DNA of 52,500 nucleotides. Origin: a virus. Shown piece by piece: positions 1,219 to 49,645 of this stretch. The number at the start of each line of letters is the position of its first letter. Position 1 is the first letter of the stretch. The DNA is taken from UHGV virus genome UHGV-0197997; one strand, given 5' to 3'. A model generated the notes under the pieces. The model made no database searches. It was not told where the DNA came from and saw only the letters and a program-made list of their open reading frames with translations. Both the position numbers and the translations under genes were made by a program.

Positions 1219-4200
1219 TTACGCGCCTGACACCCTGCCTTTTGCAATCTGGTGTACAAAATAAGATGACAACATCTCAATCATCACTTTGTTATGACTT
1301 GAGATAGTCGTTGGTATGCCAGACGCCAGGCGTGGGGAGAAACCATAGAAACGTCCGGACGAATACGGATTGGTAAGATAATCTTTTTCGTAGGCCTGAA
1401 CACAAGCCAGCAGAGCATTTCCGGTTGATACCCGTCGGACCAGCATCATCGTCAATGCAACGCTAACCGGAGTCGAAATGATCCCCCTTCGGCTTTCAGA
1501 AATAATGAAATCAATCCCCCGCAACCTGCCATCACCGCACAATCCCTGAAGTCCATAGTTGACGTTGTTAAACAGGGGCGTTCCGCCGAGTAACTCCGTC
1601 ATCATGAGGTATTCAGGCGCGAGGTCCATATCGTAGTTGTACCACCGGCTCCTTGCCAGGGAGGTGCTGACTGGCATCGAATCCAGCATGCTTGGCAGAT
1701 ATCGACCAATGGTGCTGCTATTGGTCAGATTCGTCATCACCGTGTTATAGCATGACTGGTAAGCTCCGCCAGTATCCATCCCGGCGTGTATTGCCAGCGC
1801 GACAAGCAGCATGCCGTAGATATTAATATTCACGGCGGCACTGACTGAAGATGGCGTATAGGTGTTCGGCACACCTCCTTTTGCTGCGACTGCTGTAACC
1901 ATTGCGTCAGCCCACGACTTAATATAAGGCTGCATTGCCGCCATTGTTGCAGTGTCACCCAAAAACTCAGCCGCACGATATACAGAAACACATGGCTTGA
2001 GTACCGGAGTGACCAAATCAGCAACATTAATAACTCCCTCCAGATAGCGGGCTCCGATATTAGTGCTTCGCCAGTTATCATCCCAGCACCGTTTAAACCT
2101 GGCCCATACTGCCGCAATATTAGGTGAGGGCTTTTGCAGTTCACGATACGCAAGATAACCCCACGGGGTATTAATATCATATGGCCCGGCATTCGAATCC
2201 ATACCGCCTATTCCAGCTGAGTCTCCATTCATCCAGAAGTCAGCAACCCCATCAAGCAATACTCTCAGCTTATTCTCAGCTTCTTTTACTGCAAAGTTAG
2301 GAAGCCTCCCGCCACGCGCAAAACCCACAGGCCGATTGTAAACTTTCTTCGCAAGCGTTAACGGGTCTGTTTCAGTTTCACTGGCATTCAGCCAGGCTTC
2401 AATGGTCCATGTCCAGTTTTTCTCAACCGGCCAGTTAAGAAATGAATAATCCGACAGGGATGAATATTGCCAGCCTGTGGTTACGCCCAGCGTAAACTCT
2501 GACGCGGCATTCGTCATCGTGATGCCTGTCGGTCTGGTTGGGCCCGCAGAGGTTCCATCCCTGTGAATATCCCCGTTTACAATGGTCGGCACATAGGAAA
2601 ACCTGCCGTTACCGGCTGTATTTCCGGTTGTGATTGCTGCAGCAGCGGTACCGGAATAGGCTGGAGTCGTCCCGTTTTTATAAATAACATTAGAGCTAAT
2701 AGTTGCTCCACACATCTTACCAACAGGAATATCCTCCAGGGCAGTCACCATGTTTTTCACAACGACGATTCCGTTTTTAAAAATGCGGAAGCGAGTGGTG
2801 GCCTTAATAATGCCTGCCGAATAAACGGCACTGGCGGCATTGTAGCCTGTGCGCTCAATCTCGGTAAAAAGCGGGCCGGTATTGATGACCTTCAGCGTAA
2901 CGTTGTAGGTGAAATACTCGATAACCTGAGCGCCTGCAGTCACGTAGCGATGCTGCGGGCTCAGCGTGCATCTGATACGGTTGATATCATCATTTTTAGC
3001 AGCATCAATGGATGTGAGGCCATAGGCTCCACCGGCAAAACCAAAGCGGTAATACAAATCACCCACTTTAATGTTATAACGCTTCAGGGCATCAGAAGGC
3101 GCGTAGTACTCCAGGCCTTCGGAATAGATCGTATCATCATAGCGATAACCAAAAACATCCACGTTATAATATTTTTTTTGTCCCGCCGATACGGAATCGA
3201 CGATCCACACGGCCCCCGTTTTGAATGAGCCATCAGGGTGATAACCTTCAGTTGACTGAAAGCGAAGGTTCACGAAATCATCTGCAGAAAATTGCGCATC
3301 AAACACGTTTCCTTCAGCGTCAGATACCTTAATGCAGTTGTGACCAAACACCATTCCTGCAGGGAAACTCACTTTTAACTCGACAGGACCACTGTAGTCG
3401 GTAGCCATGTCATTTACTACATCAGCAACAAAACGGGTAAAAGGGTTATTGTCAGTGTTCTGCCTGGAAATTCCGTTGTAATAAAGAATATCTGCGTCAA
3501 TGGTCAGATAATCGTTTACAGAAATTGTCGCAGGTTCGGCGCTTAATTTGGCAAGGTAAGCCGTTTTATATACTGATACATCGGTACTTCTGTAATAAAG
3601 ATGTACATCATCAAATGAGGCATAGAAATAGTTTTTAACGCCATCATCAGTAATGCTAAACCCTGCCCCCGTAATATCAGAATAGGGGAATGTTAGCTGG
3701 ATTGAGGTTGAGCCGTCAGGGTTAGAGTAAAGCGTGCAATATTTACCATCTGAGCCATACGCACCGGTGTTACCGGAAATAAAATCACCGGACTTGTCGA
3801 TAACGGCATAGGCAGTGATCGATTTATAGGTATTGATAAGCGGAACATTGGTAAATATTGCTCGGGCAACTGAATTTGTCTCATCAAACAAAACTGTTGC
3901 TGGTCTTAACTTTGCCAGTTGAACAGAGTGATATGGAGAGTTAAGTACATTATCAGCAAAGTATTCAGCCGGAAGTAGTTCTGCAATTACTGTTGTGACA
4001 CCGCTTTGCAGATGGGTTACTTTTAGTGTGTTTTTCTGGTTTCGGGCGTCAGAAGTTTCAGCAGCTGACAGGGAGTTAATGCGTAAAACAGATTCTTTCC
4101 CGACATTGACTACAGTGTCACCAGGCATTGAGATACTGGTAAACTTAGTTAGCGGAAGTGATGAGATTTCGCTAAGCAAAACATTAATGGTGCCAATTTT

Positions 4201-9050: not shown

Positions 9051-12000
9051 TTACTCCTTATACCCTCTGACGTATCGACTATGAAGAGCGCGACCAAACT
9101 CATTCGATGGTTTATAAACTTGCTGCGCCATATCCCTGCGAATATCTTTCACCAGCTTTTCATTGCGTCGATCTATTGCAGCAAGAGTGGCGTCATCAGG
9201 TTTTCCTGTGTAGGAATTCTGGATATGGATATAACCTCCCGCCCCTGAATCCTGCCTGGCCTGTTGGACCTTTGTTAAGGTGTCATCCAGTTTTGCTGAA
9301 GTGCTGGCGGTCACAACTCTTTCGCCTTTTTGAAGAAGCCATGTCCCTGTTTCGGGTACACGATCAATACCATCGTGAGCCATGCCAGAAAGTGATAAAG
9401 CACCTACAGCAGCAGCAAGGGGCTCAGTAAATGCGGCGGCAACACCTGCTGCGGCTGGAGCCATCGCCGGACCAAAGACAGGAATCGCAGCTGTCGAAGC
9501 GTAAGCGGCTAACTGAGCTTGTAAGGCTGTGGCCTGAGCATTAGCAAACATTGCTGAACCAGCTGAGGCCTGTGTTGCTTTTCCTACCATCAGTTGAACA
9601 GCCTGATAAACCAGCCACTGAGCCCCCATTTTAACCAGCGTATCAATGACAACATTTCCCAATCCTTCAAATGCATCATTCAGAGATTCTGATACTGATT
9701 TGGAGCCATCAATCATGCTCTTAAATCCCTCAGTAATTTCAGATGTCGCACCGTCAAGAATTGCTGTCGTTGCATCAGCTGCAATTTGGCTTAAATTTGC
9801 AGCCTCATCAGCATAGTCAATCAATGAATCCATCATCCCCGAGCTCCAGTCCTTCTGTTGCTCATCGGTTTTTCCGTAATATTCCTCCTGTATAGCTAGC
9901 CTTTCCTCAAGGGCCGATTTCAGCGCTTCTGTTTGCTGCTTATAGAGGTCTTCCGAAATTTCACCGCGGCTGAAATCACGCTGCAGATCACGCTGCTGTT
10001 TCTGGAAGTCTGAGCGAATATCAGCCATTTCCTTCATGCGGTCGCGGGTTTTATTACCCATACCAGCACCAAGAAAATCAATATCACCGAGATCACGAGC
10101 TGCGGAATTACTGTCGGCAAGACCTTCACGGAACGTTTTTAACTGTTCAGCAATTTTTTTCTGATCGATAAGTGCGGCATTTTGCAGAAGGGTTTCTTTT
10201 TTAGCTTGCTCAAGTGAAATCAATTCCCCTTGGGAAACCTGGTATTTTACTTTTGCAAGTTCAGTATTCTGACTGCCGAGGCTTATTTGTTCCTGCTGCT
10301 GTTTAATGAGTCGCTTATAAACATCTTCTGTTTTTTCAGCCGCCTTTACCTCTTCGCTTTTTGGCGTTTTACGTACGGGTTTATTGGATTCATCATTTTG
10401 CCATTTCGCTAACCCTTGGTTAACATACAAGTCGCGATTTGTTTTGAATTGAGGTTCATCCTTAAGACCTAATTCATCAGCGGCATAGCCTAACCGAGCT
10501 CTTTCCTTTGCCTCTCCTTTAAGCTTTGATAATTCCAGGTCCTGACGGCTTTTTTCAAGGGCATTGGTTTGTTGGGATGTTAAATCAGCCTGGGGCATGC
10601 GCATTGGGACGTTAACCAAGCCCTGCCGCTCCATTAAGAGCTGATTTCCCAAACCAAGCAAACGGTTAACTTCCGAATATTTACCAGTCATCATTACAAG
10701 GTTCTGGTATTCATCATTTTGACGCCAAGCCCGATCTTTAATAAGATCGTTTCTTCTTCTCTCTTGCTCCTCGAGTGCTTTCAAAATATCACTCGACTTT
10801 GCACGCATCTGCCTGAGTTTATCTTCCTCAACAACAACTTGCTCAGTTAGAATGGCTATAGCCTTTGTGATATTTAAATCATTCTCTTGTGTAATACCCG
10901 GCTTACTTCTACTTTCATTAAGATCCTGTATTTGTTTATTAAGACCACTTACACTCTTTTGCTGTTCATCAATCAGGCGCTTTTGCTCCTGCATCGCCTC
11001 AACTGTCAGTTTTCGGTTGTTATCAACCTCAGGAAGTGACATGGATGAGGTTTTTTCTCTGATTTGATCTATTTGGCTGGCATACTCCTGAGCTGACTTT
11101 CTTGCTTGTTCCTGGCTTTGATACATAGCGTACCATGCGCCAGCACCCAGCATAACTAACCCAGGTATACCGCCGACCAACCCAAGAGCACCGCTCATCA
11201 ACCGGGTGCCAACAGATGTAACGCTGTTAAGGTTATTTTGAGCAGAAACCCTGCCTGAAATATTACGGCTAAGCGCCGCTTGCGCTGCGGCAAGTTTTCT
11301 TTCTGCAATAGCTTGTGCATCGGCATTTTTTGCAGCCACAAGCCCGGACTGGGCACGTTCGAGTGCGGTTTTAGCGCGAACTTTTTCTGTAGCCGTCCCC
11401 GTAGCGAGGGCTGTAGTCAACCGCCCCTGTGCAGCAGTAACCTTTGCTTCTGCAGCTGCTACTCTTTCCTGTTGTGCAGCCTGAACATCTGCACTTTTCG
11501 CACTCTGAAGTGCCTGTTGGGCTCGATAAACTGCAGCGCGGGAAGCGGCAACAGAAGATTGAGCAGCTTTTTCCTGAGCTACTGCAAGAGCCACCTCAGA
11601 TTTTGCGGCTGAAATAAGTGCGCCAGTGGCACTGGTTGCGCTGGTAACAATCCCGCCAAGATACCGGGCTAACCCAATGCCAACGAGTCCACCAGCAGCT
11701 GTGGTAATCAGTGACATATTATCTGCTACATCACTGAGGGCTCCGCTGACAGCAGAAGATGTAAGAGAGTCTAGAGTTCCCGCCAGCCCATCAAGACCGC
11801 CAGATAGTGCATTTGTCGCGCCAGTTGCCTGGTTCACTCCCCCGACCCATGCCATGAACGAGTTAGTTACTTTTTGCATTGATCCGGAAACTGTCGGCGG
11901 TAACGAGGAAAACTCTCCCTGTAAAACACCCAACTGACTGATTAATGCAGGAACGACTTTATCAATCGTGAGTTGCCCCTGATCCGCCATTGCTTTAAGG

Positions 12001-12635
12001 TCTTTTCGGGCAACACCCATCCCTGCCGCCAGGGCACGGATAACACGATCCCCTGCCTCGTTAACGGCATTAAACTCTTCACCGCGTAACACTCCCTGAG
12101 CAAGCGCCTGGCTAAACTGGGTAATAACAGAACCGGCCTCTTCAGAACTTGCACCAGATAGCTTAAGTCCTGTTGATACCGCCTCGGTGATTTTGAGTAC
12201 TTCATCTGAGCTGTAGCCAAATTCACGCATGGATGCAGCAGCGCGTGAAAATAAATTAGCGTTATCAGTAAAAGCAGTACCCGTACTCTGACTAATAGCC
12301 ATTAAACGAGTCTGAGATAAAGTGAAATCATTTGAGGAGACAGAGGCCTGTTTAAGCCTTGCGTTTACAGAGTTCCACTGATCAGCGATTTGAACTAATT
12401 TCCCTGTCGCGAAGGCCGCAGCGGCTGCCGTAGCGGCTCTACCAGCAGAGGCAAACCCATCAGTAAGATCGGAAAGAGCACGCTGACTTTCTTTAGCAGC
12501 AGCAGCAGCCTGACGCCCTCCATTCTGCATGGTTTTATAATAGTCTTGCCCCATACGTGATGCGCGGGCAATCTCAGTCTGGAATGATTGAGAGTTTGCT
12601 GAAACCTTAATAATAAGCTCACGTAGGGTTGCCAT
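9051..12635 (-). CDS. Tail tape measure protein, 1194 aa
   Basis: Very long Ala/Gln/Glu-rich coiled-coil protein between tail chaperones and minor tail genes; SD AGAGGT upstream of ATG. Confidence 0.85.
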   Translation of the reverse strand: MATLRELIIKVSANSQSFQTEIARASRMGQDYYKTMQNGGRQAAAAAKESQRALSDLTDGFASAGRAATAAAAAFATGKLVQIADQWNSVNARLKQASVSSNDFTLSQTRLMAISQSTGTAFTDNANLFSRAAASMREFGYSSDEVLKITEAVSTGLKLSGASSEEAGSVITQFSQALAQGVLRGEEFNAVNEAGDRVIRALAAGMGVARKDLKAMADQGQLTIDKVVPALISQLGVLQGEFSSLPPTVSGSMQKVTNSFMAWVGGVNQATGATNALSGGLDGLAGTLDSLTSSAVSGALSDVADNMSLITTAAGGLVGIGLARYLGGIVTSATSATGALISAAKSEVALAVAQEKAAQSSVAASRAAVYRAQQALQSAKSADVQAAQQERVAAAEAKVTAAQGRLTTALATGTATEKVRAKTALERAQSGLVAAKNADAQAIAERKLAAAQAALSRNISGRVSAQNNLNSVTSVGTRLMSGALGLVGGIPGLVMLGAGAWYAMYQSQEQARKSAQEYASQIDQIREKTSSMSLPEVDNNRKLTVEAMQEQKRLIDEQQKSVSGLNKQIQDLNESRSKPGITQENDLNITKAIAILTEQVVVEEDKLRQMRAKSSDILKALEEQERRRNDLIKDRAWRQNDEYQNLVMMTGKYSEVNRLLGLGNQLLMERQGLVNVPMRMPQADLTSQQTNALEKSRQDLELSKLKGEAKERARLGYAADELGLKDEPQFKTNRDLYVNQGLAKWQNDESNKPVRKTPKSEEVKAAEKTEDVYKRLIKQQQEQISLGSQNTELAKVKYQVSQGELISLEQAKKETLLQNAALIDQKKIAEQLKTFREGLADSNSAARDLGDIDFLGAGMGNKTRDRMKEMADIRSDFQKQQRDLQRDFSRGEISEDLYKQQTEALKSALEERLAIQEEYYGKTDEQQKDWSSGMMDSLIDYADEAANLSQIAADATTAILDGATSEITEGFKSMIDGSKSVSESLNDAFEGLGNVVIDTLVKMGAQWLVYQAVQLMVGKATQASAGSAMFANAQATALQAQLAAYASTAAIPVFGPAMAPAAAGVAAAFTEPLAAAVGALSLSGMAHDGIDRVPETGTWLLQKGERVVTASTSAKLDDTLTKVQQARQDSGAGGYIHIQNSYTGKPDDATLAAIDRRNEKLVKDIRRDMAQQVYKPSNEFGRALHSRYVRGYKE

Positions 12636-12647
12636 TCACTACCTCTT

Positions 12648-12675
12648 TAAAATAAAAAACCTGCCGAAGCAGGTT
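12648..12675 (-). terminator. Rho-independent terminator downstream of the secreted moron, upstream of tape measure gene
   Basis: Minus-strand hairpin AACCTGC-TTCG-GCAGGTT followed by TTTTTATTTT. Confidence 0.6.
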
Positions 12676-12695
12676 AATTTTCACAACTAATAAAT

Positions 12696-12980
12696 CTAGT
12701 TTGCATTCTGGTCTATAAAATCTCTCAGAATTTGAGATTGACCGCATAACTCTTTATCCGGTGACATTCCTGAATCCTTAGACTTTTGACAGTAATAAAA
12801 GTAATCATCATTCTCTTTGGCATATGATATAACTTTATAAAATGCTTTCACGCACAGCGTTGGGTCTAAATGCTGGGAGCAAATGGTACTTGTTAGCTTT
12901 TGCAATTCCTGAGGCTCAAGAATTTGCGTTGCATTAGCTGCTGACGTGAGAAAAACAAAACCAAATAATAATTTTTTCAC
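12696..12980 (-). CDS. Secreted Cys-rich small protein (moron), 94 aa
   Basis: GTG start preceded by SD AAGGGGGG; signal peptide MKKLLFGFVFLTSAANA; several Cys; visibly AT-rich; own downstream terminator. Confidence 0.6.
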   Translation of the reverse strand: MKKLLFGFVFLTSAANATQILEPQELQKLTSTICSQHLDPTLCVKAFYKVISYAKENDDYFYYCQKSKDSGMSPDKELCGQSQILRDFIDQNAN

Positions 12981-13034
12981 AAATCCCCCCTTTTCTTTAG
13001 TAATAGGGAATCCTAAACCGTCCTTGGTTTTTTG

Positions 13035-13340
13035 TCACTGAGAAGCGGCCAAAAGAGCAGCCTCTAATCCGGCAAATGGATCGCTGCTGTCGCTTACCTC
13101 AGCCTCTTCTGAGTTCCACTTGATCAGTGCGTCTTCAAATGTCACTTTTACGCCCTGTGATCCATACATGGCAGAAACAAGCTGAGCATTGAGAATATCG
13201 CTACGCACATCGCCGATTGGGCTGATACGGTCATACTCAGCCCACATCCTGAACTCCCCCACCGTCATAGTCTGTCGCAGTTCGCCCAGCGTGCGGCCCA
13301 TCCGGAGCGCCAGCGCCATCAGAAACTGCATGCCAGGCAT
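13035..13340 (-). CDS. Tail assembly chaperone, frameshift-extension portion (gpT-like)
   Basis: Immediately follows the G-like ORF in a different frame; classic G/GT arrangement between major tail and tape measure genes. Confidence 0.5.
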   Translation of the reverse strand: MPGMQFLMALALRMGRTLGELRQTMTVGEFRMWAEYDRISPIGDVRSDILNAQLVSAMYGSQGVKVTFEDALIKWNSEEAEVSDSSDPFAGLEAALLAASQ

Positions 13341-13342
13341 TT

Positions 13343-13747
13343 TTACTTTGCTTTAGCATCATCCGCATCACGGATGAGATCGAGAGCCTGTTTCAGCAGT
13401 CGAGAATGGATTGGACCGTAAATTGCTTCAACCTGTTCGGTATCATCGACGGTGAAAACATACTGCAGGTCGGTATCCAGCAAAATATCAATGAAAAGCG
13501 TGACATCTGCCCGCATTCCACGAAAAGCGCGTTCAGAGGGGGTGAGCTCTGGTACTTCTGGCGCTTCCTGCCCTTCCGGTGGTTTGGGTTGATCCGGACT
13601 GGAGATACTCTGCCAGCGAATCCAGGCTTCAGCCGATGGCTCGCGAATGATAACTTTGGCGTTTTCCCACTCCGGAACGATGACTTCCTTTTTGCGAAAA
13701 CCCGCCATCGGGGCCAGTGCCAGCGCTTTAAGATTCTGTTTTGACAT
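13343..13747 (-). CDS. Tail assembly chaperone (gpG-like)
   Basis: Small acidic protein between major tail and tape measure genes. Confidence 0.55.
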   Translation of the reverse strand: MSKQNLKALALAPMAGFRKKEVIVPEWENAKVIIREPSAEAWIRWQSISSPDQPKPPEGQEAPEVPELTPSERAFRGMRADVTLFIDILLDTDLQYVFTVDDTEQVEAIYGPIHSRLLKQALDLIRDADDAKAK

Positions 13748-13777: not shown

Positions 13778-14482
13778 TTAACTGATGGTGACGGTGTGAT
13801 CAGCAGAGGTGATAACGGTGCCATCGGCATCGGTAACCACGCAGGAATAAACCCCGGCGTCACCTGATACTGCGCTGGCCTTATTAAACGTTGCGCTGGT
13901 CTGCCCGCTGACCGTAGAAGAGCCTTTTTTCCAGACGTAGGTATAAGGCGCCGTGCCGCCCTGGACGACCACACCCATTGTCAGGGCGCTTCCGGCCGCT
14001 ACCGTCTGCGATGCAGGAAGGTCTGTCGCGAAAGACAGGATGCCAGGGGCATTAATATTGGTTGGCTTGCCTTTCAGACGCAGCGAGAACGTTGCGGCTA
14101 CCACACCATTGGCTTGAGAATCCCAGGTGTGCTGACGCACCTCATTGCGCATCAGGAATCCATTACCAGACGGGAAAATAACCTTAAATCCATAAACACC
14201 GTCGTTATCGTATGCTGCACGAAGTGCATCCTGCGCCGGGTTGCGGTAGAAGTTACCAGAAAGTGACATTTCCGACGGTGCCGGAAGCCCGTTGATATTT
14301 TCTGTTTCGTCAGAGCAAAACGTCGTCACATCAATATCGGTTTTCTGACCGGCGGTAAAGCTGGCCTGTTTGATAGTGCAACTCAGGTTTAACCAGGTCG
14401 CCGTGTCCAGTTCTGCCGCAGTGACCGGTACTGAGGTAATCATTACTACCGTTTTTTGGGCGCGTTCAAATTGTGCTGACAT
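13778..14482 (-). CDS. Major tail protein with C-terminal Ig-like domain
   Basis: Start taken at second ATG (MSAQFER) preceded by SD GGAGG; C-terminal Thr/Val/Ser-rich Ig-like segment (TAPYTYVWKKG...YSCVVTD). Confidence 0.7.
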   Translation of the reverse strand: MSAQFERAQKTVVMITSVPVTAAELDTATWLNLSCTIKQASFTAGQKTDIDVTTFCSDETENINGLPAPSEMSLSGNFYRNPAQDALRAAYDNDGVYGFKVIFPSGNGFLMRNEVRQHTWDSQANGVVAATFSLRLKGKPTNINAPGILSFATDLPASQTVAAGSALTMGVVVQGGTAPYTYVWKKGSSTVSGQTSATFNKASAVSGDAGVYSCVVTDADGTVITSADHTVTIS

Positions 14483-14496
14483 TGCAGCCTCCATAA

Positions 14497-26522: not shown

Positions 26523-26915
26523 ATGAACAATCTGGAAAAATTACGCGCTGTTGGGGAAGCGGTATATGGGGATAAGTGGCAGTCTGCACTTTCACGCGCC
26601 CTCGGTATTTCTGACCGTACCGTGAGGAATTTCGTGTCTGGGAAGTCCCAACCGGAAAACTTATCAAATCGCTTACTCGAGGCGATGGAGCTTGAAATGG
26701 GGAAAATCAAAGCGGCCATCGACATCATCAATAGCGACAAGTTGCGTGGTGACGACATCTCTATTGAGATGATTACTCAAATTGCAGACCGCTACGAATA
26801 CTGTGATGAACAAGATCGTAAGGCTGCGATAGACGCAATGAACAATGCAGTTTACGAGGAAACATTCCTCTCCGACCTGGAAGCAATAGCGATCAGACTC
26901 GCAATACGCCATTAA
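26523..26915 (+). CDS. HTH DNA-binding protein
   Basis: HTH-like segment QSALSRALGISDRTVRNFVSG; follows small acidic ORF; hairpin 26920-26943 after stop. Confidence 0.55.
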   Translation: MNNLEKLRAVGEAVYGDKWQSALSRALGISDRTVRNFVSGKSQPENLSNRLLEAMELEMGKIKAAIDIINSDKLRGDDISIEMITQIADRYEYCDEQDRKAAIDAMNNAVYEETFLSDLEAIAIRLAIRH

Positions 26916-26930
26916 TGTTAAGCCCACGCG

Positions 26931-27161
26931 TTAACGTGGGCTTAAATTGGGGTGTGGTGCTGAGTGCCTCTCAGTAAGCCTTTGGTCAGCAACCATGACT
27001 TGCGGTCCGAGTGAATCATAAGGATTCCATTTAAGCTGTTTCCGCCCCTCCGCACAGGGGGATTCACCACGCCAATAATTTATAGCTACTTCATTCCCAT
27101 CGTCAATAGCAAGCACTCTGTCAAAGGCACCCGAAGATGCCTTTTGCACAGTGTTATTCAC
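26931..27161 (-). CDS. Hypothetical protein, 76 aa
   Basis: ORF downstream of small membrane ORF; stop lies in hairpin loop; weak support. Confidence 0.3.
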   Translation of the reverse strand: MNNTVQKASSGAFDRVLAIDDGNEVAINYWRGESPCAEGRKQLKWNPYDSLGPQVMVADQRLTERHSAPHPNLSPR

Positions 27162-27309
27162 TGGACTTAATTAACGGCCAGAGTAAAGCAATTACTCCGG
27201 CCACCAGCACGCCATCTGCCAGGATGGACATCATTTTGCTGGTGAAGTCGATGGCAACCACCAAGAACAAAAGCACCCCGGCAGCGCCCCAGCGAAGTTT
27301 GCCAATCAC
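27154..27309 (-). CDS. Small two-helix membrane protein, 51 aa
   Basis: GTG start overlapping TerB-like stop as GTGA; hydrophobic segments GAAGVLLFLVVAI and GVLVAGVIALLW. Confidence 0.35.
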   Translation of the reverse strand: MIGKLRWGAAGVLLFLVVAIDFTSKMMSILADGVLVAGVIALLWPLIKSSE

Positions 27310-27728
27310 AGATACTGATCCAGAGGAAGCTGCAGAGCCTGGGAGATTTTCTTCAGAGCCACCTCTTCTTCTTCACCAATACCATCGTTATCTGCAATAT
27401 CCAGACAGAGGCAGAGAACATCCACTGCATCAGAGGTACCGGCAACATCAGCCAGTTGACGAATAGCTTCGGCGTTAGCTGAACGCGGGGAAGCTTCGTA
27501 ACGAGCGCGAATGTTCGAACTCATCTGGGCAATTTCACCAGCGAACGGGGCAAATGCCGGCAGCGCGGAGATAGTTTTCTCCAGTACCGCAATCTCTTTT
27601 GCATCACAGGTGCCATCCGCATACGCAATCGAGTATGCGCCCCAGACAGTTGCCTCTACCGCATCGCGGTTCTCCATCTTCTTAACTTCTGCTACTGCCT
27701 TACGTGCTTTTTTACCGAATCCAAACAT
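27306..27728 (-). CDS. TerB-like (tellurite-resistance TerB family) domain protein
   Basis: Two ADG-type motifs (IAYADGTCDAKE and LDIADNDGIGEEEE). Confidence 0.55.
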   Translation of the reverse strand: MFGFGKKARKAVAEVKKMENRDAVEATVWGAYSIAYADGTCDAKEIAVLEKTISALPAFAPFAGEIAQMSSNIRARYEASPRSANAEAIRQLADVAGTSDAVDVLCLCLDIADNDGIGEEEEVALKKISQALQLPLDQYL

Positions 27729-28038: not shown

Positions 28039-28114
28039 TGGTGCTGGTTGACGGAATCGAACCACCGACATCCTACTTACAAGGCAGGTGCTCTACCTAC
28101 TGAGCTAAACCAGC
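28039..28114 (-). tRNA. tRNA-Thr (anticodon UGU), phage-encoded
   Basis: Hand-folded cloverleaf: acceptor GCTGGTT/AACCAGC, D-arm GCTC-AGTAGGTA-GAGC, anticodon loop CTTGTAA, T-loop TTCGATT, encoded CCA; T-stem needs two wobble pairs; 5' end overlaps methyltransferase stop by 10 nt. Confidence 0.55.
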
Positions 28115-29154
28115 AAATTGCGCATTTCACTGACCGTCTGTTCAAACCGCTCGGTTTCCAGTTCAACGCCGATTCCACTCCGCCCGAGTAGAGCAGCTTG
28201 CTTTAGTGTGGAACCAGAACCAGCAAAGAAATCAGCTACGACCTCCCCCGGCCGACTGCTTGCAGTAATGATCTGCTGGAGCATATCGGCAGGTTTTTCG
28301 CATGGGTGCTTACCTGGGTAGAACTGAACAGGCTTATGAGTCCACACGTCGGTATACGGCACCGAGACGGAAACACTAAACGGCCTCCGCAGGCAGTGAT
28401 ACTCCTGCTGAAGTTCGCAGTATTTCCGGTTAAGAGATTGCCATGTTGCGACAAGCTGGTGATGGGGCTTAGCAAGTTCGTTTCGTGAGTGTTTATCTCT
28501 GGCAATTTGCTGGAACAACGTCTGCAATTTCAGGTAATCGGCTTCGTTCGGTAACTGCCACTGGCTAAGACCGAACCAGTGAGAAACCATGTTTTTCTTA
28601 CCTGTGGCAACTGTAATTTCTGCTGACGTTACTCCAAGAGATTCTCTGGCTTCCCGGAAATAGGAAATCAGTGGAGTCATGACATGCTGCTTGAGTTCAT
28701 TGCTCTTAGCAGCAAACCCATCATCTTTCGGATTATATGGCCCTTGATAATGATCGGCGAAAATGATGCGCTCCGTCGCAGGGAAATATGAGCGCAGGCT
28801 CTCTTTGCTGCATCCGTTCCAGCGCCCGGAAGGTTTTGCCCAGATAATATGGTTAAGCAGGTTAAAACGCTCGCGGACCAGTATCTCAATGTCCGCCGCC
28901 AGCCGGTGCCCGCAGAAAAGATACATGCTGCCCGAAGGTTTCAAAACCCGCCAGAAGTGGGCCAGACAACTATCGAGCCATCGCAAATAGTCATCATCCC
29001 CATTCCATTGATTGTCCCAACCGTTCGGCTTCACCTTAAAGTAAGGCGGGTCAGTAACGATCAAGTCGATGGAGTTATCTGGAAGCGATGGAAGAAATTG
29101 CAGGCAGTCAGCATTGATTAACTCAATACTGGATATTTTTACAGTATTTTTCAT
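28105..29154 (-). CDS. DNA methyltransferase, beta-class (N6-adenine or N4-cytosine), orphan
   Basis: DPPY motif (LIVTDPPYF) N-terminal to SAM motif DFFAGSGST; no adjacent restriction gene. Confidence 0.8.
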   Translation of the reverse strand: MKNTVKISSIELINADCLQFLPSLPDNSIDLIVTDPPYFKVKPNGWDNQWNGDDDYLRWLDSCLAHFWRVLKPSGSMYLFCGHRLAADIEILVRERFNLLNHIIWAKPSGRWNGCSKESLRSYFPATERIIFADHYQGPYNPKDDGFAAKSNELKQHVMTPLISYFREARESLGVTSAEITVATGKKNMVSHWFGLSQWQLPNEADYLKLQTLFQQIARDKHSRNELAKPHHQLVATWQSLNRKYCELQQEYHCLRRPFSVSVSVPYTDVWTHKPVQFYPGKHPCEKPADMLQQIITASSRPGEVVADFFAGSGSTLKQAALLGRSGIGVELETERFEQTVSEMRNLLV

Positions 29155-30225: not shown

Positions 30226-30984
30226 CTATCGTGTCACTTCCTTCAGTTTCTGCTCAGCGAAGGTCTCCTCTTGCCAGCATTTTGTAACCAGAATATTGAT
30301 CACCTCGGCATATCCGCTATACCACTGATAATTGGTCATATCAGGTACCAGCCGTATTACTCGATCTTTTACCAGTGTCGTAGGCAAACGGCTGTAACCC
30401 TTGCCATTACACCGTCCACATAGTTTTTGCACAGGTACTTTATGCAACTCAGTACGTTTTTTATCGAGTACGAGGCCGCGTCCACGGCAGTCCCTGCACG
30501 CTGTACTGATCCAGCCCTTCCCTGCGCAATGACTGCATGTTGACTCAACCTCTTCAGGTTTAATCGTAGGTGGGATGCCTTTCACTCCAGGGTGTTTAAC
30601 AACGTCCTTTACCTCCCGAATGACTCGCTGCCCATTGCATTGTGGGCATGTGCTCTTGCTGGCAGCTGAACGCGCATAATCATTGAAAGCAAAAGTTGCT
30701 AAGCAAGAAGCCATTTCAATACGAATACTTTCGGAAAGTTTGGACATTACAGGGTTCTTTAATGTCATCGCGTAATTGGTTAGTTGCTCGATAGCCGGCT
30801 CGGGATCCTGAATACCCATTTTTGCGAGAAACAAATTGAAGCCAAATCGAGCCTGGGCAGACGCCATACCTTGTGCTGCCATAACATCCGTAATCGTTAG
30901 TGAAGTGCCCCCAGTAGCCGGAGTTTCATCATTAAGCTTTGGTGACTTTGGGGAATAAAATTTCGGTAATGATTCAAGTTTCAT
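30226..30984 (-). CDS. Q: Late antiterminator Q (Cys-rich zinc-binding type)
   Basis: Start MKLESLPKFYSPKSP with SD GGAG; Cys-rich CPQC...CSHC...CRDC...CGRC; upstream of late promoter/terminator. Confidence 0.65.
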   Translation of the reverse strand: MKLESLPKFYSPKSPKLNDETPATGGTSLTITDVMAAQGMASAQARFGFNLFLAKMGIQDPEPAIEQLTNYAMTLKNPVMSKLSESIRIEMASCLATFAFNDYARSAASKSTCPQCNGQRVIREVKDVVKHPGVKGIPPTIKPEEVESTCSHCAGKGWISTACRDCRGRGLVLDKKRTELHKVPVQKLCGRCNGKGYSRLPTTLVKDRVIRLVPDMTNYQWYSGYAEVINILVTKCWQEETFAEQKLKEVTR

Positions 30985-31002
30985 GTTAAGCACTCCATAC
31001 AC

Positions 31003-33523: not shown

Positions 33524-33925
33524 TCAACCTACCACTGAACAAACATCCAGCGCTTTTCTATAAGCCGATATAGTGATTTCTACCCGCCCTCCTTTAACAT
33601 TCTCGCCCCACTCTATAGCCATGCGTTTTACCTGGCTGTCGTCCTCCCAGATCCCGGCATAGGTCAAAGCATCGAGCAGGGCCTTGTTGTAATTATCCAG
33701 GTCTCGCCGGCGGTAATCCGGCGGGTAAAGAATAATTTCTACAGCTGCTGGTGCCGATGAAGGCTTTGGTATATCTCGCAATTGCTCAATGACCGCTGCC
33801 CGCACCGCATGCTTAAACTTGCGGCCTGCCGCACTGACAAGAAGCTTGCCTTTTGCGGGCCCCTTATTTGGGGATCGCCAATAGGCATTCACGCTGGGCG
33901 GAAAAGGAAGTAAAAATTTCATCAC
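33524..33925 (-). CDS. rusA: Holliday junction resolvase RusA
   Basis: N-terminal PPSVNAYW motif and ~130 aa size typical of RusA. Confidence 0.8.
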   Translation of the reverse strand: MMKFLLPFPPSVNAYWRSPNKGPAKGKLLVSAAGRKFKHAVRAAVIEQLRDIPKPSSAPAAVEIILYPPDYRRRDLDNYNKALLDALTYAGIWEDDSQVKRMAIEWGENVKGGRVEITISAYRKALDVCSVVG

Positions 33926-34395
33926 TCCTCCAGTACCATTTTAAGTTCGAAAGGCAAGTCGCCACCGCAATAGCAGAGTTGCCCCAGCTCTGACATGAGG
34001 CTCCATAGGGTCATTGACGAATAGCCATTTTCGTCAGTCGCCGGCGGCTCAAATTCACCAAATATTCCTGGCGCACGAGCTCGATTTTCATCGTGTTGGG
34101 CCTGCATAAACCTCAGGGAGATATCATTCAACTTCACCTTTACGATGCTGTTGAGGTTAACTGAAACCTCCCTGGTTAAAAGCGAAGTGGTGATGCTGAT
34201 ACCGCGGGAAACCCCGCGGGTAATCTTGATGGCCCCTTTTCTCTCCAGCGCCTTGAGGTGGGTTGCCGCCGCATTGGGGGACCGGCACCCCAACATGCCG
34301 GTCAGTTCGTAGGTGGTAGGCGGGAAACCATGCTTACGTTGGTACTCGATCAGGAGGTTCAGAACCTCCTGCTGCCTGAGAGTTAACTTCATCAT
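33922..34395 (-). CDS. LexA N-terminal-like DNA-binding protein without S24 peptidase domain
   Basis: MKLTLRQQEVLNLLIEYQRKHGFPPTTYELTGMLGCRSPNAAATHLKALERKGAI closely resembles LexA DNA-binding domain; C-terminal half lacks Ser/Lys peptidase motifs. Confidence 0.55.
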   Translation of the reverse strand: MMKLTLRQQEVLNLLIEYQRKHGFPPTTYELTGMLGCRSPNAAATHLKALERKGAIKITRGVSRGISITTSLLTREVSVNLNSIVKVKLNDISLRFMQAQHDENRARAPGIFGEFEPPATDENGYSSMTLWSLMSELGQLCYCGGDLPFELKMVLEE

Positions 34396-36479
34396 GCTGC
34401 CCGCTCCTGTTTGTTAACGCACATTTCTGGCAGATTGGCCCTAACCAGCGCCTCAGCGAACGGCGGCGGCACGGCGTTTCCGCAGCGCGCAACCTGCTTG
34501 TCCTTCGAATACTTCACGCCGCGGTAGTCCCGGTCGATGATGTACCACTCAGGGAAGCCCTGCGCGCGATAGAGCTCATGCGGTTGCAGCATGCGCATCC
34601 CGATATCAACAATTCGGAACGTAACGCCGTCAATATCCACCAGCCCGGTGCTGTCCTCCCCGCAGTATTCCCGCAGAAATGCCAGCACCTGCTGAGCGCG
34701 CTCTTCGTCGTAGTCCTCGACCGCCAGTGTCGTTTTAACCTCTCCAACATGCTGGCCCCCGGCGGTAATTGTCGGCATCGGCTCGTCAGCGCGCTGACCA
34801 TCACGACAGGTCCCACGCAGTTTGACCAGGTGGGATGAGACTATTGCGGCATCGGCTTTAGTGGTCATTGTCTGCAGCGGCTCGCTAACATCACGCGGGC
34901 GGCTCTGCCCTGCTCGCCCACCAACGCCAACAACCTGGGCTGTAACCAGTGCATGATGATCAATCGTCGTCACCGAGTGGGCGGGCTCACCCAGTCCTAC
35001 GCCGGCGCCCTGATAATTCCCGCCGTAGTGTTTAGCCAGGAACGCCCCGACAACAGCATGCTTTCCGCCACCAGCAACAACGGTACCCAGCGGTTTGTCC
35101 AGCCCTGGCACGCGAGGTGCCTGCCCTGGTCGTTCTCCGTATCCCATCTGAATCAACGTCGGCACAACCAGTTGCGATTTACCGCCGCCGCCGGCGGTGA
35201 TTGTTGCACTGGGCTCGTCGGCGCGATGACCGATGCTTGCGCCAAACTGGCGCGCAATGACCGGCGCAACGATACAGGCGCGGGACTCTTTCAGGATGGT
35301 GTGAGCAGGTTTATCCAGTGGCCGTGGCTTAGCCTGGTACTCGCTGCCACCATTTCCGGCCAGGAACGGCGCCAGCTCAGCTTCAACGACACCCAGTGCA
35401 TGACCATTCCCGCCCGGGCGTTTTGACGTGCCGGCGGTCACCGTAGGTACCGGGTCGGTAACTGGCTGCCCGGTGGCACCGGTGCGGAATTTTGTCAGGT
35501 GAGGTACCGCGATTGCGTACCCATGAGTTTTGGTAATGGTCTGTAGAGGATCGGCCAGGGCCTGCCCCCGAAAACAGTCGTATTTGCCACGGGTGGTTGT
35601 GTGGTTGCATTTCACAATGAATGGATCCGCGCTGTCGATAACGAAACGCTGAATGCCGCGGGCTATGCGTTTGAGCGTATTCTCTGCCAACGGCTTTTTG
35701 CGGTCGAATATCGACCGCGCGGAAATAGTCCAGTCGATGCATTCCGCCGCGGTGCGAAACGGCGCCAGCTTGCCTGCCTGCACCGCCGGCGATTTCGGAT
35801 CCCCGTGTGTAGCCTCCGGCCAGACAATAGGCTGGTCATCACGACGCATCACCATGAAGAATCTTTTACGGATGGTTGGGGTTCCAAGGTCGGATGCACG
35901 CAGTTCACGGCAATCCAGATCGTAACCAAGCCCCGAAATCAGCCGCTGAGCCTGCTCGCTTTCCAGCGAGAGCTCCAGAAATTCGCAGCACTCTACCAGC
36001 GCAGGATGATCAGCAGGAATGCCAGTTGTTAGCATGCCGACAAATGCCCGGAATGTTTCGCCAACGCGCGCAGGGTCTGGGCGCATTTCTGCCGCCAGCA
36101 GCGGGCCCCACGTTTTGAACTCCTCCACGTTCTCCAACATCATCACCCGTGGGCCAACATCCAGGGCCCAACGAATGACAATCCACGCCAGCCCACGGAT
36201 GGCTTTTTCTACAGGCTTCGCCCCTTTCGCCTTCGAGAAGTGGCGACAATCTGGCGAAAACCAGGCGAGACCTACAGGTTTGCCGCTGGTGGCAGCTGCA
36301 GGAGAAACATCAAACACGCTTTCGCAATAGTGCAATGTGTCAGGATGGTTAGTGCGGTGCATGGCCACGGCGTTCTCGTCGTGGTTAATAGCAATATCAA
36401 CGCTGCGCCCGATCGCCATTTCGATCCCGGTTGATGCCCCGCCGCCGCCAGCAAAATTATCAACAATCAGCTCACGCAT
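34392..36479 (-). CDS. DNA cytosine-5 methyltransferase-like, 695 aa, with repeated TAGG-containing internal motifs
   Basis: Motif I FAGGGGASTG, ENV motif, motif IV-like SPDCRHFS (DC instead of PC), C-terminal RCGNAVPPPFA; four internal repeats of the TxTAGG type. Confidence 0.75.
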   Translation of the reverse strand: MRELIVDNFAGGGGASTGIEMAIGRSVDIAINHDENAVAMHRTNHPDTLHYCESVFDVSPAAATSGKPVGLAWFSPDCRHFSKAKGAKPVEKAIRGLAWIVIRWALDVGPRVMMLENVEEFKTWGPLLAAEMRPDPARVGETFRAFVGMLTTGIPADHPALVECCEFLELSLESEQAQRLISGLGYDLDCRELRASDLGTPTIRKRFFMVMRRDDQPIVWPEATHGDPKSPAVQAGKLAPFRTAAECIDWTISARSIFDRKKPLAENTLKRIARGIQRFVIDSADPFIVKCNHTTTRGKYDCFRGQALADPLQTITKTHGYAIAVPHLTKFRTGATGQPVTDPVPTVTAGTSKRPGGNGHALGVVEAELAPFLAGNGGSEYQAKPRPLDKPAHTILKESRACIVAPVIARQFGASIGHRADEPSATITAGGGGKSQLVVPTLIQMGYGERPGQAPRVPGLDKPLGTVVAGGGKHAVVGAFLAKHYGGNYQGAGVGLGEPAHSVTTIDHHALVTAQVVGVGGRAGQSRPRDVSEPLQTMTTKADAAIVSSHLVKLRGTCRDGQRADEPMPTITAGGQHVGEVKTTLAVEDYDEERAQQVLAFLREYCGEDSTGLVDIDGVTFRIVDIGMRMLQPHELYRAQGFPEWYIIDRDYRGVKYSKDKQVARCGNAVPPPFAEALVRANLPEMCVNKQERAA

Positions 36480-37422
36480 GGCTCACCCCCTGCATGCTTT
36501 CAACCAGTCCACCAGCAATAGCGATGATTTCACTGGTGGGCATACGCTCCAGCCAGAGCTGGTTAATATGTGCTTTCAGCCTGTTTTGATGGGACAACTC
36601 CATCCCTTCAGCTCCTTCAACCTGTCGAAACAACAGCCCTACTTCCAATGGCCAGATACGTGATTCCGTCGCCGGTAATTCCACAGGCGCTGCAGGTGGT
36701 TCTACTGCCGCCGCCGGCGCTGTTACTTGTGCTGGAATATTGCCAACAGCAAACTGCGCCAGCCTCATGAATGCATGACCCTTAGCTTCCAGATCGGACC
36801 GGTGGATATAGCTGAAACGCTCGCCTCGCCATGACTTATCAAACACAACAATGGCACCAGCGAAAAATGCGCTGGTGGGCTTTTGCTTATCATCAGCAGG
36901 GATAAACCACGAAGGTAGATCGAATCCAATTCGACCACGAATAAACATGATGTGATCAGCATCTTCCGGCCACCATGTTTCGCTTGTTGCTGACTTCACA
37001 AGGTAAATGTAGCGACCGCCCTTTTCACGCTGCTCAGTGGTATAGTTCATGATATGAGCCATGCCGGTGATGGCTTGTTTTTCATGGTACTGCGAGCGAC
37101 TGTACGGCGGGTTAGCAAAGGCCGCGCCGCCGAGTTCTACCAGGCGACCTGACCAGTCCTGCGTCAGCGCATTGTCTTCAGCGGTGTACCATGCCGGGCA
37201 TTTTGCGTTGCTTTCGTCAGCGAACAGATCCAGAACCAACGGACCGAACATCGCGTTGATCCCCCAGAACAGTAGATCCGGAGTACGCCATTGATCCCCT
37301 ACATCTTTCAGGTAATGGGCGCTGCACTGGCGCTGTTCTTCAAGAGCCAGGCAATAAGGGCTGACAGTCTTAGCTTCGGTATTTTCTTCTTCGATCATCA
37401 TGTCCTGCACTTCCTGGATCAT
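36472..37422 (-). CDS. DNA N6-adenine methyltransferase (phage Dam-like)
   Basis: NPPY motif (FANPPYSRS); overlaps C5-MTase start. Confidence 0.7.
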   Translation of the reverse strand: MIQEVQDMMIEEENTEAKTVSPYCLALEEQRQCSAHYLKDVGDQWRTPDLLFWGINAMFGPLVLDLFADESNAKCPAWYTAEDNALTQDWSGRLVELGGAAFANPPYSRSQYHEKQAITGMAHIMNYTTEQREKGGRYIYLVKSATSETWWPEDADHIMFIRGRIGFDLPSWFIPADDKQKPTSAFFAGAIVVFDKSWRGERFSYIHRSDLEAKGHAFMRLAQFAVGNIPAQVTAPAAAVEPPAAPVELPATESRIWPLEVGLLFRQVEGAEGMELSHQNRLKAHINQLWLERMPTSEIIAIAGGLVESMQGVSHA

Positions 37423-48254: not shown

Positions 48255-48464
48255 ATGGCAAAACTTATGAAAGCGAGTCAATGGGGCAAACGCGAATTTG
48301 CTAAAGACTCTATTCCTGATAATCGAACGATTAAACGTTGGGTTGAAAATGGACTCCTTACGGGAAAGATCGTCGACGGATCCGTTTTCGTCTTCGAGTC
48401 TGAAAAATGGGGTGTCGACTCAATGGTTAACCACACAGTTCGACAGCTAATAAATGAAGGTTGA
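48255..48464 (+). CDS. xis: Excisionase-like small DNA-binding protein
   Basis: 69 aa basic protein immediately upstream of and overlapping integrase start; SD GGAGG. Confidence 0.5.
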   Translation: MAKLMKASQWGKREFAKDSIPDNRTIKRWVENGLLTGKIVDGSVFVFESEKWGVDSMVNHTVRQLINEG

Positions 48465-48466
48465 CC

Positions 48467-49645
48467 ATGGCAGCAAGACCAAGAAAAAGAGAATATCGTC
48501 ATCTTCCTGAATACCTGATCTTTGATAAGGATCGAGGTGTATACAAATTCACACTCATAACGGGAAAGAAAAAGAATCTTGGTAAAGACCGAGCTATGGC
48601 GATAGCTATAGCTCGCGAATATAACCTAAGAATGAGGCCCTTTAATGCACCATCGGTTGAATTATTAATCCGAGACTCCGGGGGGATCTCTGGGGAAGCT
48701 AAACCATTTGCTGAACATGTAGATCATATTATGGCCCGAGCGATTGAAAATGAGCGCCCATCTCAAAATACTCTTGATGACTGGAGTAACGACGCACTTC
48801 GGGTGAAAGAATTCTTCGTCGGTATGCCAGCCTGCGATATCGAGCTGGAGCACGTGAACGCCTATATAAACCATTATCATGCTGATGCTTCAGCAAACGT
48901 ACAAAACAGGAAGGTCAGCTTCCTTAAGAAACTATTCTCCTATGCTGTCGATGAATCATTGATGTTTGATAACCCTGCTACACGTAAAAAAATGCGAAGG
49001 ACTGAGGAGAAGAAACGGCAGCGCCTGTCACTCGATAACTTTAAAGCCATCAGACTCGCCGCCGAACCATGGCTGCGTACCGCTATGGATTTAGCATTGC
49101 AGACGACGCATGCACGCCTCGAGGTGTCACGAATCCGATATTCAATCAGTGAGCCAAAAGATGGAGTCTGCGGGTGCGTATGGCTGGCACAGCCGGAGAA
49201 TGGGATATATGGCACGCTATACATCCACCGCCAGAAAGTACAGAAGAAAGAGGCCTCGCATGTTGCAATCCCGATCGGGGAAGAATTGAAACGGATTATT
49301 GACGAAAGCCGCGATAACGTAGCTAGCCCGTTTGTCGTTCATCGAATTCCTGAGCGGCAGGTTAAACGCAGCAAAGAGGTTTCACACCCGACACAGGTTG
49401 CGCCGGATTATCTGAGCCGGTCCTTTTCCGCGGTGCGAGACAAGCTAGGTTTATGCGACAAACTGGCAATGGATGAAAGACCAACCTTTCACGAAATTCG
49501 AGCGTTGGCCGCTCACCTCTTCGATCAGCAGGGTATAGATCCACAAGGTCGAATGGCGCATAGCGATGCAAAGTCCACCAAGATTTATACTCAAAATCAT
49601 ATAGACTGGGTCGTCGTCCCTCATGGTGAAATCAAAGCCTGTTAG
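48467..49645 (+). CDS. int: Tyrosine integrase (lambda Int family)
   Basis: C-terminal catalytic region with HEIRALAAH ... KSTKIY(Tyr); N-terminal arm-binding-like domain; start at ATG after SD GAAGG. Confidence 0.85.
   Translation: MAARPRKREYRHLPEYLIFDKDRGVYKFTLITGKKKNLGKDRAMAIAIAREYNLRMRPFNAPSVELLIRDSGGISGEAKPFAEHVDHIMARAIENERPSQNTLDDWSNDALRVKEFFVGMPACDIELEHVNAYINHYHADASANVQNRKVSFLKKLFSYAVDESLMFDNPATRKKMRRTEEKKRQRLSLDNFKAIRLAAEPWLRTAMDLALQTTHARLEVSRIRYSISEPKDGVCGCVWLAQPENGIYGTLYIHRQKVQKKEASHVAIPIGEELKRIIDESRDNVASPFVVHRIPERQVKRSKEVSHPTQVAPDYLSRSFSAVRDKLGLCDKLAMDERPTFHEIRALAAHLFDQQGIDPQGRMAHSDAKSTKIYTQNHIDWVVVPHGEIKAC

Follow-up and report, generated by a model that had tools for sequence, protein, structure and literature searches.

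The 52,500-nucleotide (nt) stretch of viral DNA UHGV-0197997, which as a whole is called the window below, is a Klebsiella-type, HK97-like prophage, and its tail module carries, directly before the gene of the tape measure protein (TMP), a small open reading frame (ORF) of 94 codons whose product, a predicted exported protein of 94 amino acids (aa) with four cysteines, is the subject of this work. According to our analysis this ORF is very probably the cargo of a moron-type cassette, and we tentatively propose that its product may act in the periplasm of the lysogen to exclude superinfecting phages. The locus and the regulatory gene relevant to it are composed of the following elements, with coordinates given in the window and all elements of the slot lying on the minus strand.

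14494..13778, minus strand: major tail protein gene, the first in the gene order leading to the 94-codon ORF.
13747..13343, minus strand: gpG-like tail assembly chaperone gene, G (PF06222, E 4.7e-43).
13340..13035, minus strand: gpT-like gene, T (PF06223, E 3.6e-18; phrog_337, phrog_14766).
13033..13038, minus strand: promoter-like -35 sequence GTGACA, overlapping the T stop codon TGA (13037..13035); from a pattern scan.
13010..13015, minus strand: promoter-like -10 sequence TAGGAT, 17 nt after the -35; from a pattern scan.
12992..12985, minus strand: Shine-Dalgarno sequence AAGGGGGG, 4 nt 5' of the GTG; read from the sequence.
12980..12696, minus strand: 94-codon ORF with GTG start, between the T and TMP genes.
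12930..12980, minus strand: signal peptide, codons 1-17, MKKLLFGFVFLTSAANA; cleavage by signal peptidase I predicted after A-N-A.
12696..12929, minus strand: mature 77-aa domain and stop codon; predicted four-helix bundle with four cysteines.
12648..12675, minus strand: intrinsic-terminator-like hairpin and U-run, with a 7-bp stem and a UUCG loop; from a pattern scan and folding.
12635..9051, minus strand: TMP gene, 1194 aa (PF20155, PF06120, PF09718; phrog_339).
31002..30226, minus strand: Q-type antiterminator gene (PF03589, E 4.7e-42), upstream of the late operon.

Gene T lies in the -1 frame relative to G, which matches the expectation for a G/GT frameshift pair, and the spacer between T and the ORF is 54 nt long; a second spacer of 60 nt, inside which the hairpin and the U-run are found, leads from the ORF to the TMP gene. 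An initial annotation of the window had described here a 94-aa ORF with a GTG start and a strong Shine-Dalgarno sequence, visibly lower in GC content and inserted between the tail chaperone and TMP genes, and in all these points it was right. The start codon and the Shine-Dalgarno sequence are as listed above, T (PF06223) lies upstream and TMP (PF20155, PF06120) downstream, and the GC fraction of the ORF is 0.361 versus about 0.50-0.55 in the flanks (whole slot 0.356 versus 0.546 in T, 0.511 in G, 0.475 in TMP and 0.499 in the window). An ORF that is a part of the T or TMP genes had been named by the same annotation as the outcome contrary to its idea; the ORF is separate from both. Homologues of the gene have AAGGGG as a Shine-Dalgarno sequence, or GGTGAAG ahead of an ATG start. 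Low GC of the slot (0.31-0.36 versus flanks of about 0.5) is also seen in all 36 loci of the family which we found in the IMG/VR database, and the AT-rich composition is retained in every family lineage (GC 0.31-0.41), which indicates a stable property of the gene and not a mark of its recent arrival.

As a whole, the AT-rich unit measures about 360-380 bp, comprises the promoter-like motif, the ribosome binding site, the 94-codon gene and the hairpin with its U-run, and is swappable for other cargo. A blastn search of phage records returned Klebsiella HK97-like prophages with flanks 80-88% identical to those of the window, only one of which is collinear with it through the slot; in the phages with other cargo the homology is lost at window 12661-12676, within the hairpin and its U-run, and picks up again at 13035-13056, where T has its stop codon. 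Relatives whose T and G proteins are 85-96% identical to those of the window carry unrelated cargo in the slot, one of them together with a 98% identical TMP. Among other phages the slot holds a 173-aa membrane protein in MK433583, a 77-aa YebO-like protein in MK422450 and KY271401, and gp15 with an annotated rho-independent terminator in HK544, and in a more distant relative, vB_EcoS-733R4, it is only a 46-bp spacer.

The same picture on a larger scale was obtained from a census of the 77 closest IMG/VR relatives (within our loci L057-L136) for which TMP as well as a T of at least 83% identity could be located. The slot, taken as the equivalent of window 12636..13034, is empty in none of the 77 and holds at least 9 types of cargo, the commonest being YebO/gp15-like genes (37 of 77), followed by membrane proteins or lipoproteins with a 'KDPxSAxF…CG..N.KN.YG' domain (22 of 77) and by members of the 94-aa protein family (11 of 77; a further match to the family motif, in L070, was counted as a false positive). 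The remainder is made up of single other secreted proteins or lipoproteins, KilA-N-type inserts and one insertion sequence element, so that the small cargo of the slot is envelope-targeted almost throughout the census. The domain of the second commonest type, uncharacterised, has the consensus 'KDPxSAxF…G(Y)VCG.(V/I)N(A/S)KN(S)(Y/F)G(A/G)Y(A/T)G' and occurs in two forms, as a lipoprotein (about 127-140 aa) and as a fusion with three transmembrane helices (173 aa; phrog_16400, phrog_2320).

The word moron, according to the review by Cumby, Davidson and Maxwell, was first applied to the element containing HK97 gene 15, and in the sense of Juhala/Hendrix 2000 it denotes a unit with its own promoter and terminator, deviating composition, absence from close relatives and expression in the prophage (PMC3594210). 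In the present case the DNA is absent or replaced in relatives with conserved gene order, its base composition is unlike that of the surrounding genes, and it has a terminator of its own, though this is partly a feature of the phage backbone. The idea of an accessory, moron-like insertion, which the initial annotation had wished to see checked by presence or absence in relatives, is supported by the unrelated cargo that close relatives carry at this place. We consider it highly probable, judging by these sequence features, that the cassette has the architecture of a moron and occupies the slot of HK97 gene 15.

The predicted precursor reads MKKLLFGFVFLTSAANA, continued after the cleavage point by TQILEP…, and comprises an n-region MKK with a charge of +2, an h-region LLFGFVFLTS (mean Kyte-Doolittle value 2.2) and a c-region with A-N-A before TQ that satisfies the -3/-1 rule; it thereby possesses the charged n-region, the h-region of 10-15 residues and the small residues at -3/-1 typical for substrates of Sec and signal peptidase I. 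The signal peptide was called by rules on these n/h/c features and by their conservation over 9 diverged homologues, where a positively charged n-region, a hydrophobic stretch 10 or more residues long and the small-x-small motif are kept though the sequence itself has diverged. A scan with the motif [LVI][ASTVI][GAS]C revealed no lipobox in the window protein; there is no cysteine within the signal peptide and no second hydrophobic segment in the 94 residues. We infer from these features that the product is exported via a cleavable Sec signal peptide and has a soluble mature domain. The cysteines C34, C43, C64 and C79 are the only invariant columns of the 12-member alignment (A2), in which identity falls to 26%, and H37, N57, D59, K66, K68 and R86 are near-invariant among the same members. 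Both the clear signal peptide and the several cysteines of the initial annotation were in this way recovered. AlphaFold2, run with a 10-sequence alignment, predicts a four-helix bundle with helices at residues 23-34, 40-58, 60-69 and 76-93, at a predicted local distance difference test score (pLDDT) of 75 overall, below 50 for residues 1-17 and 72-91 for residues 21-94.

A Pfam search of the 94-aa protein returned nothing at E values up to 1, sequence searches of PDB with 10- and 12-member profiles gave chance hits only (E of at least 0.26), and a structural search with the predicted fold found nothing above generic helical bundles. The sole PHROGs match, phrog_21025 (E 0.011; weaker with the Aeromonas homologue, E 0.051), was judged to be noise driven by the signal peptide. 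Three further weak matches were set aside: PsiF (NCBIfam NF008560) with 22 bits and E 1.4e-4 against a cut-off of 165 bits, matched by 3 of the 12 members; the pectin methylesterase (PME) inhibitor model TIGR01614 with 14 bits, over residues 5-49 that include the signal peptide, against a cut-off of 35.95, also in 3 of 12; and PADLOC PDC-M04B with 17 bits and E 1.1e-3, in 2 of 12. All of these matches are confined to the two or three closest members. Tail-assembly interference of the Tai/Tab kind was likewise rejected as a precedent, as these proteins are cytoplasmic and encoded elsewhere.

The family is a small one. A word-indexed search gave 3 clusters with the window protein as a query and 6 with its Aeromonas homologue, and when 1.84 billion representatives were searched exhaustively with a profile, 10 hits reached E of 1e-3 or below, one of which is a spurious repeat protein, so that the family amounts to about 10 clusters at 50% identity. 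By tblastn it was found in 3 of 50,697 phage records, namely Klebsiella phage ST13-OXA48phi12.2, Aeromonas phage AsXd-1 and Escherichia phage SaltyDalty, and in IMG/VR at the 36 genuine loci mentioned above. Its sources are Klebsiella, Citrobacter, an E. coli phage and Aeromonas phages; among them are prophages of the clinical Klebsiella pneumoniae complex and of Citrobacter freundii as well as an Aeromonas salmonicida phage and a swamp E. coli phage. When the slot was compared by megablast with 5,426 complete E. coli genomes, nothing matched, which we read as a sign that this is not an E. coli prophage, and a pattern scan of GTDB species-representative genomes, a negative limited by the pattern used, gave no relative; in the searches made the family was not found away from phage tail modules, elsewhere in bacterial chromosomes. 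All members are 91-100 aa long, the four cysteines and the signal-peptide architecture are retained down to 26-31% identity, and the pairwise ratio of nonsynonymous to synonymous substitution (dN/dS) is 0.13-0.25 at dS up to about 0.9. On the strength of this sequence conservation the ORF is a real gene under purifying selection.

Three further IMG/VR loci (L054-L056) were left out of the family, as only about 26-31 residues match there, inside unrelated proteins of 255-265 aa. These proteins are AT-rich and have a local motif …DPSVCR.ALY.IV.YIKENDDKKRYC… at 45-50% identity, which may be due to chance or represent a shared mini-motif. In AsXd-1 (L007 2196..2546, AXC33169.1) the annotated coding sequence of 116 aa overlaps the end of T; the true start of this homologue is likely that of its signal peptide, MKKLVLF… (97 aa), which has its own Shine-Dalgarno sequence.

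The promoter-like sequence GTGACA-17-TAGGAT (13038..13010) agrees with 9 of 12 consensus positions, and the pattern scan alone is not significant, with 3 promoter-like sites versus 1.7 ± 1.3 expected. Its conservation is more telling. Of the 19 distinct upstream sequences that were aligned, with contexts from Klebsiella, Citrobacter, E. coli phage and Aeromonas phages, none deviates from GTGACAA (19 of 19), two non-coding bases beyond the T stop included; as the -10, 18 of them have TAGGAT and 1 has TATTAT, with the 17-nt spacer free to vary; the phages with other cargo have no 'CA' after the T stop and are thus without GTGACA at this place. The conserved hexamers form a good phylogenetic footprint for a putative sigma-70-like promoter. 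In one contig (L022, the same as L061) an insert of about 1.6 kb at 1384..3000, encoding a 279-aa KilA-N/P63C-like protein, lies between T and the 94-aa gene. A duplicated 3' end of T (…DPFAGLEAALLAASQ, followed by the stop codon) stands there directly upstream of the 94-aa gene despite the insert, which suggests that the cassette travels with this segment, and the duplication looks like a recombination footprint at the left edge of the cassette.

At the other edge, the stem at 12675..12658 (AACCUGC-UUCG-GCAGGUU) is followed by UUUUAUUUUA; the whole element begins 20 nt past the stop codon of the ORF and ends 13 nt before the TMP start codon at 12635, the distance from the hairpin to this codon being 23 nt. 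The initial annotation had spoken of a strong terminator just before TMP, and of one belonging to the gene itself. A hairpin with a U-run is indeed found there, and its strength is moderate: the stem has 7 bp, and the 56-nt region has a minimum free energy of -11.7 kcal/mol (z = -2.46 versus shuffles), with the hairpins of other cassettes in the slot reaching -18 to -24 kcal/mol and the terminator pattern scan by itself not significant (1 found versus 1.2 expected). As to the ownership, a hairpin and T-run follow the gene at the equivalent position in all family loci, with differing stem sequences. Among the close relatives, a run of at least 5 T is present in the last 75 nt of 71 of the 77 slots, and 31 distinct slot ends have mostly strong hairpins, again with differing stems. 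Even vB_EcoS-733R4, which has no cargo, keeps a hairpin AACCGC-TTCG-GCGGTT with T8 between T and TMP (L005 2148..2193), and the stretch homologous to the window continues across this hairpin. In part, therefore, the terminator is resident at the T-TMP junction, and it belongs to the gene only in part. In the empty slot it may have been left behind by a lost cargo, or it may serve to set the expression of TMP or to stabilise the messenger RNA.

The window also encodes a CI-like repressor and an integrase. The Q gene lies upstream on the same strand, which makes a Q-dependent late operon and, during lytic growth, a read-through of the slot terminator plausible on sequence grounds.

Every family member that could be placed is directly upstream of a TMP gene. 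The order T, family gene, TMP is found in loci L001, L007, L008, L010, L011 and L012; in L013 the gene stands before TMP in a tail module of another type, which has a Big_2 tube protein together with a DUF6246 chaperone, and in L015 and L016 a small YdcA-like gene precedes it, TMP still following directly. The upstream neighbour thus differs in L013, L015 and L022 and the downstream TMP is retained. Among the genuine IMG/VR loci the TMP start lies 52-62 nt past the ORF stop in 35 of 36, the remaining one, L052, ending before TMP, and with the same reservation for L052 the layout of ORF, hairpin and TMP is seen in these 36 loci and in 9 loci elsewhere. L009, L014 and L017 end right after the ORF and confirm the upstream tail-chaperone context only. 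Identity of the 94-aa protein tracks that of T, of G and of the first 190 aa of TMP (Spearman 0.81, 0.68 and 0.92; the pairs are non-independent and the values descriptive), which fits a long residence at the site, the cargo evolving faster than its neighbours. The identity of the TMP itself to that of L001 is mosaic, 98% over the first 190 aa and 80% overall, and the middle of the TMP gene (window 10100..11100) has a GC of 0.40-0.45 and a strongly negative AT skew, with gene ends at about 0.50-0.55.

We propose that the moron cassette in the HK97 gene 15 slot encodes a soluble periplasmic superinfection-exclusion factor, and for this full statement we would give a probability of about 0.4, a figure that leans on the architecture as its better-supported part. 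The exclusion function taken alone, which we derive by analogy, is to be seen as tentative, and it may well turn out otherwise. In the repressed prophage the gene would be transcribed from its own promoter, with transcription stopping at the hairpin, and in lytic growth Q-modified polymerase would continue into the TMP gene. The protein would be exported, oxidised in the periplasm, and would interfere there with a periplasmic step of the TMP-dependent genome delivery by HK97-like siphophages, its target being either the ejected TMP itself or a host factor that TMP requires; the 94-aa protein would thus be a periplasmic counterpart of the inner-membrane gp15. It is the context that suggests such a function: the gp15 precedent, the existence of TMP-targeting proteins such as Ltp, and the envelope-targeted cargo of the slot. 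In HK97, gene 15 separates the tail chaperone genes from TMP and is expressed in the prophage; its product resides in the inner membrane and prevents the genome from entering. The determinant of sensitivity to gp15 maps to the tail, as phages given the tail tube and TMP genes of HK022 escape (PMC3594210, PMC10883804). It is the only characterised cargo of the T-TMP slot. Injection by HK97 requires PtsG and the periplasmic chaperone FkpA (PMC5099701), and Ltp of phage TP-J34 is extracytoplasmic and targets TMP (PMC10883804). A bolder version, by which the family is an unrecognised class of soluble periplasmic exclusion proteins that bind TMP or its periplasmic chaperone during the passage of TMP through the periplasm, with the genomic linkage across Enterobacterales and Aeromonas phages reflecting a functional pairing, appears doubtful to us; if it is true, the T-TMP slot would be a dedicated 'entry-blocker' locus with interchangeable envelope-acting cargo.

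Several observations weigh against an exclusion factor paired with TMP. In the searches made, the 94-aa protein resembled gp15/YebO, Ltp, Cor, Llp or other characterised proteins neither in sequence nor in fold, and the function of every family member is so far predicted from sequence and context. The tracking of identities fits simple linkage as well, and the adjacency to TMP can be explained by history alone, that is by an ancient insertion, vertical descent and homologous exchange, which the conserved 3' end of T and 5' end of TMP would guide. Over 712 aa the window TMP shares 98% identity with the TMP of L002, a phage with other cargo, whereas its identity with the TMP of L001, whose cargo is the same, is only 80%; a strict co-evolution of the cargo with the body of TMP was rejected for this reason. 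As to the expression in the prophage, the promoter is a weak match to the consensus with its -35 in part within coding sequence, and in the distant member L013 the gene begins 11 nt from the upstream one, which leaves no room for an intergenic promoter.

Other explanations of the cassette differ in the role they assign to the product. It may serve the fitness of the host as a lysogenic-conversion moron (envelope stress, serum or bacteriocin resistance, colonisation), like lambda Bor or Lom: morons carry many kinds of fitness genes (PMC3594210), their architecture and an exported product, as the signal peptide suggests, would be equally expected here, and the clinical Klebsiella and Citrobacter prophages would suit such a role. 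We nevertheless find it rather unlikely, as the searches made found the family only in tail modules before TMP genes, its Aeromonas salmonicida and swamp E. coli phage members argue against a trait specific to a host niche, and the sole characterised cargo of the slot is an exclusion protein. The gene could also be a late accessory of the lytic cycle whose read-through product is exported before lysis and, comparably to the receptor masking by T5 Llp, keeps progeny virions from losing their genomes to the infected cell or its debris, in which case the lysogen would not express it; its position within a Q-dependent late operon on the same strand, the merely moderate hairpin and the missing intergenic space in L013 all go along with this. 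What makes it improbable is the promoter-like motif conserved over a variable spacer in all 19 upstream sequences, the terminator directly after the gene, and the exchange of the AT-rich cassette with gp15-like cargo of known prophage expression (PMC3594210).

An inhibitor of a periplasmic enzyme, for instance of lysozyme, a peptidoglycan hydrolase or a protease, would agree with the predicted four-helix bundle, with the four invariant cysteines and with export. Small disulfide-stabilised helical bundles serve as secreted inhibitors, such as the plant pectin methylesterase/invertase inhibitors, and the weak TIGR01614 (PME_inhib) match has a best E of 0.0016; since matches of this kind are sub-threshold and not common to the whole family, we regard an inhibitor as quite improbable. 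Still far less probable is a non-functional or purely selfish remnant ORF. One might be led to it by the rarity of the family and by the lack of a homologue of known function, but the dN/dS values, the cysteines and signal-peptide architecture kept over the whole range of identity, and the conserved promoter motif and terminator make such a remnant unlikely already.

The rest of the window offers some observations in their own right. The prophage has three DNA methyltransferases, all on the minus strand: an N6_N4_Mtase (PF01555) at 28105..29154, a 695-aa protein whose N-terminal part is a C-5 cytosine methylase domain (PF00145) at 34392..36479, and a Dam methyltransferase (PF05869) at 36472..37422. 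Inside the prophage, a tRNA-Thr(TGT) at 28039..28114, minus strand, abuts the 3' end of the N6_N4 methylase ORF. A candidate attachment site is the tRNA-Pro(GGG) at 51528..51605, plus strand, which follows the integrase gene (48461..49645) at a distance of about 1.9 kb. A match to the small RNA STnc100 (RF02076; 72 bits versus a gathering score of 47) at 26915..27101, minus strand, has the lysis genes on one side and the region downstream of Q on the other. Also on the minus strand, the early region encodes a 157-aa protein with a LexA DNA-binding domain (PF01726) at 33922..34395, and near the lysis region there is a 140-aa protein with a weak TerB match (PF05099) at 27306..27728.

The slot and the design of the moron are textbook matter, and in this respect the architecture is not new. 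What we see as new is a family of exported proteins, rare and uncharacterised, that has four conserved cysteines, is without detectable relatives and in the data set analysed always stands directly before the TMP gene, and the hypervariability of the slot in this phage lineage, where the small cargo is nearly always an envelope protein. If the 94-aa protein is an exclusion factor, it would provide a soluble periplasmic probe of how siphophage TMPs cross the periplasm, a poorly understood step, and could help to explain patterns of phage resistance in Klebsiella lysogens that are relevant to phage therapy.

Among the known systems, Llp of T5 and Sp of T4 are small exported phage proteins that block entry at the envelope. 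Llp masks a receptor; Cor and Llp are outer-membrane lipoproteins that block FhuA, and Sp is membrane-anchored and inhibits the tail lysozyme. The 94-aa protein resembles Cor of HK022, N15 and phi80 in that this, too, is a small exported phage protein blocking phage entry at the envelope (PMC3594210). It differs from Cor, Llp and Sp in that no homology to them was found and that it has neither its place in the genome nor its link to TMP in common with them. The lambda genes bor and lom are similar as AT-rich, independently transcribed envelope-protein genes in or near the lambdoid late region (PMC3594210); they occupy other slots and encode outer-membrane proteins with host-virulence functions, and no homology to them was found either.

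Closer in the mechanism proposed here is Ltp of the Streptococcus phage TP-J34, which is small, helical, extracytoplasmic and prophage-encoded and has TMP as its target (as cited in PMC10883804, PMC3952083). Ltp, however, is a lipoprotein of a Gram-positive host whose gene belongs to the lysogeny module, whereas the 94-aa gene is in the tail operon, and the 94-aa protein has neither the lipobox cysteine nor the tandem helix-turn-helix-like domains of Ltp-type proteins and gave no fold match to them.

The nearest comparison remains that with HK97 gene 15. Unlike the cargo of L004 and L006, which matches both gp15/YebO profiles (PF13974, phrog_5031), the 94-aa protein matches neither, and gp15 is an uncleaved inner-membrane protein of about 62-77 aa, whereas for the 94-aa protein a cleavable signal peptide (A-x-A after the hydrophobic segment) and a soluble disulfide-bonded helical domain are predicted. 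YebO homologues are common in bacterial chromosomes, whereas the 94-aa family was found only in phage tail modules; exclusion by gp15 was shown experimentally, and the 94-aa protein is known from its sequence alone. The two nevertheless occupy one and the same slot, bounded by the G/T chaperone genes and TMP, and in both cases it is filled by an AT-rich unit with a promoter-like sequence, a small envelope-targeted protein and a rho-independent terminator before TMP (PMC3594210).

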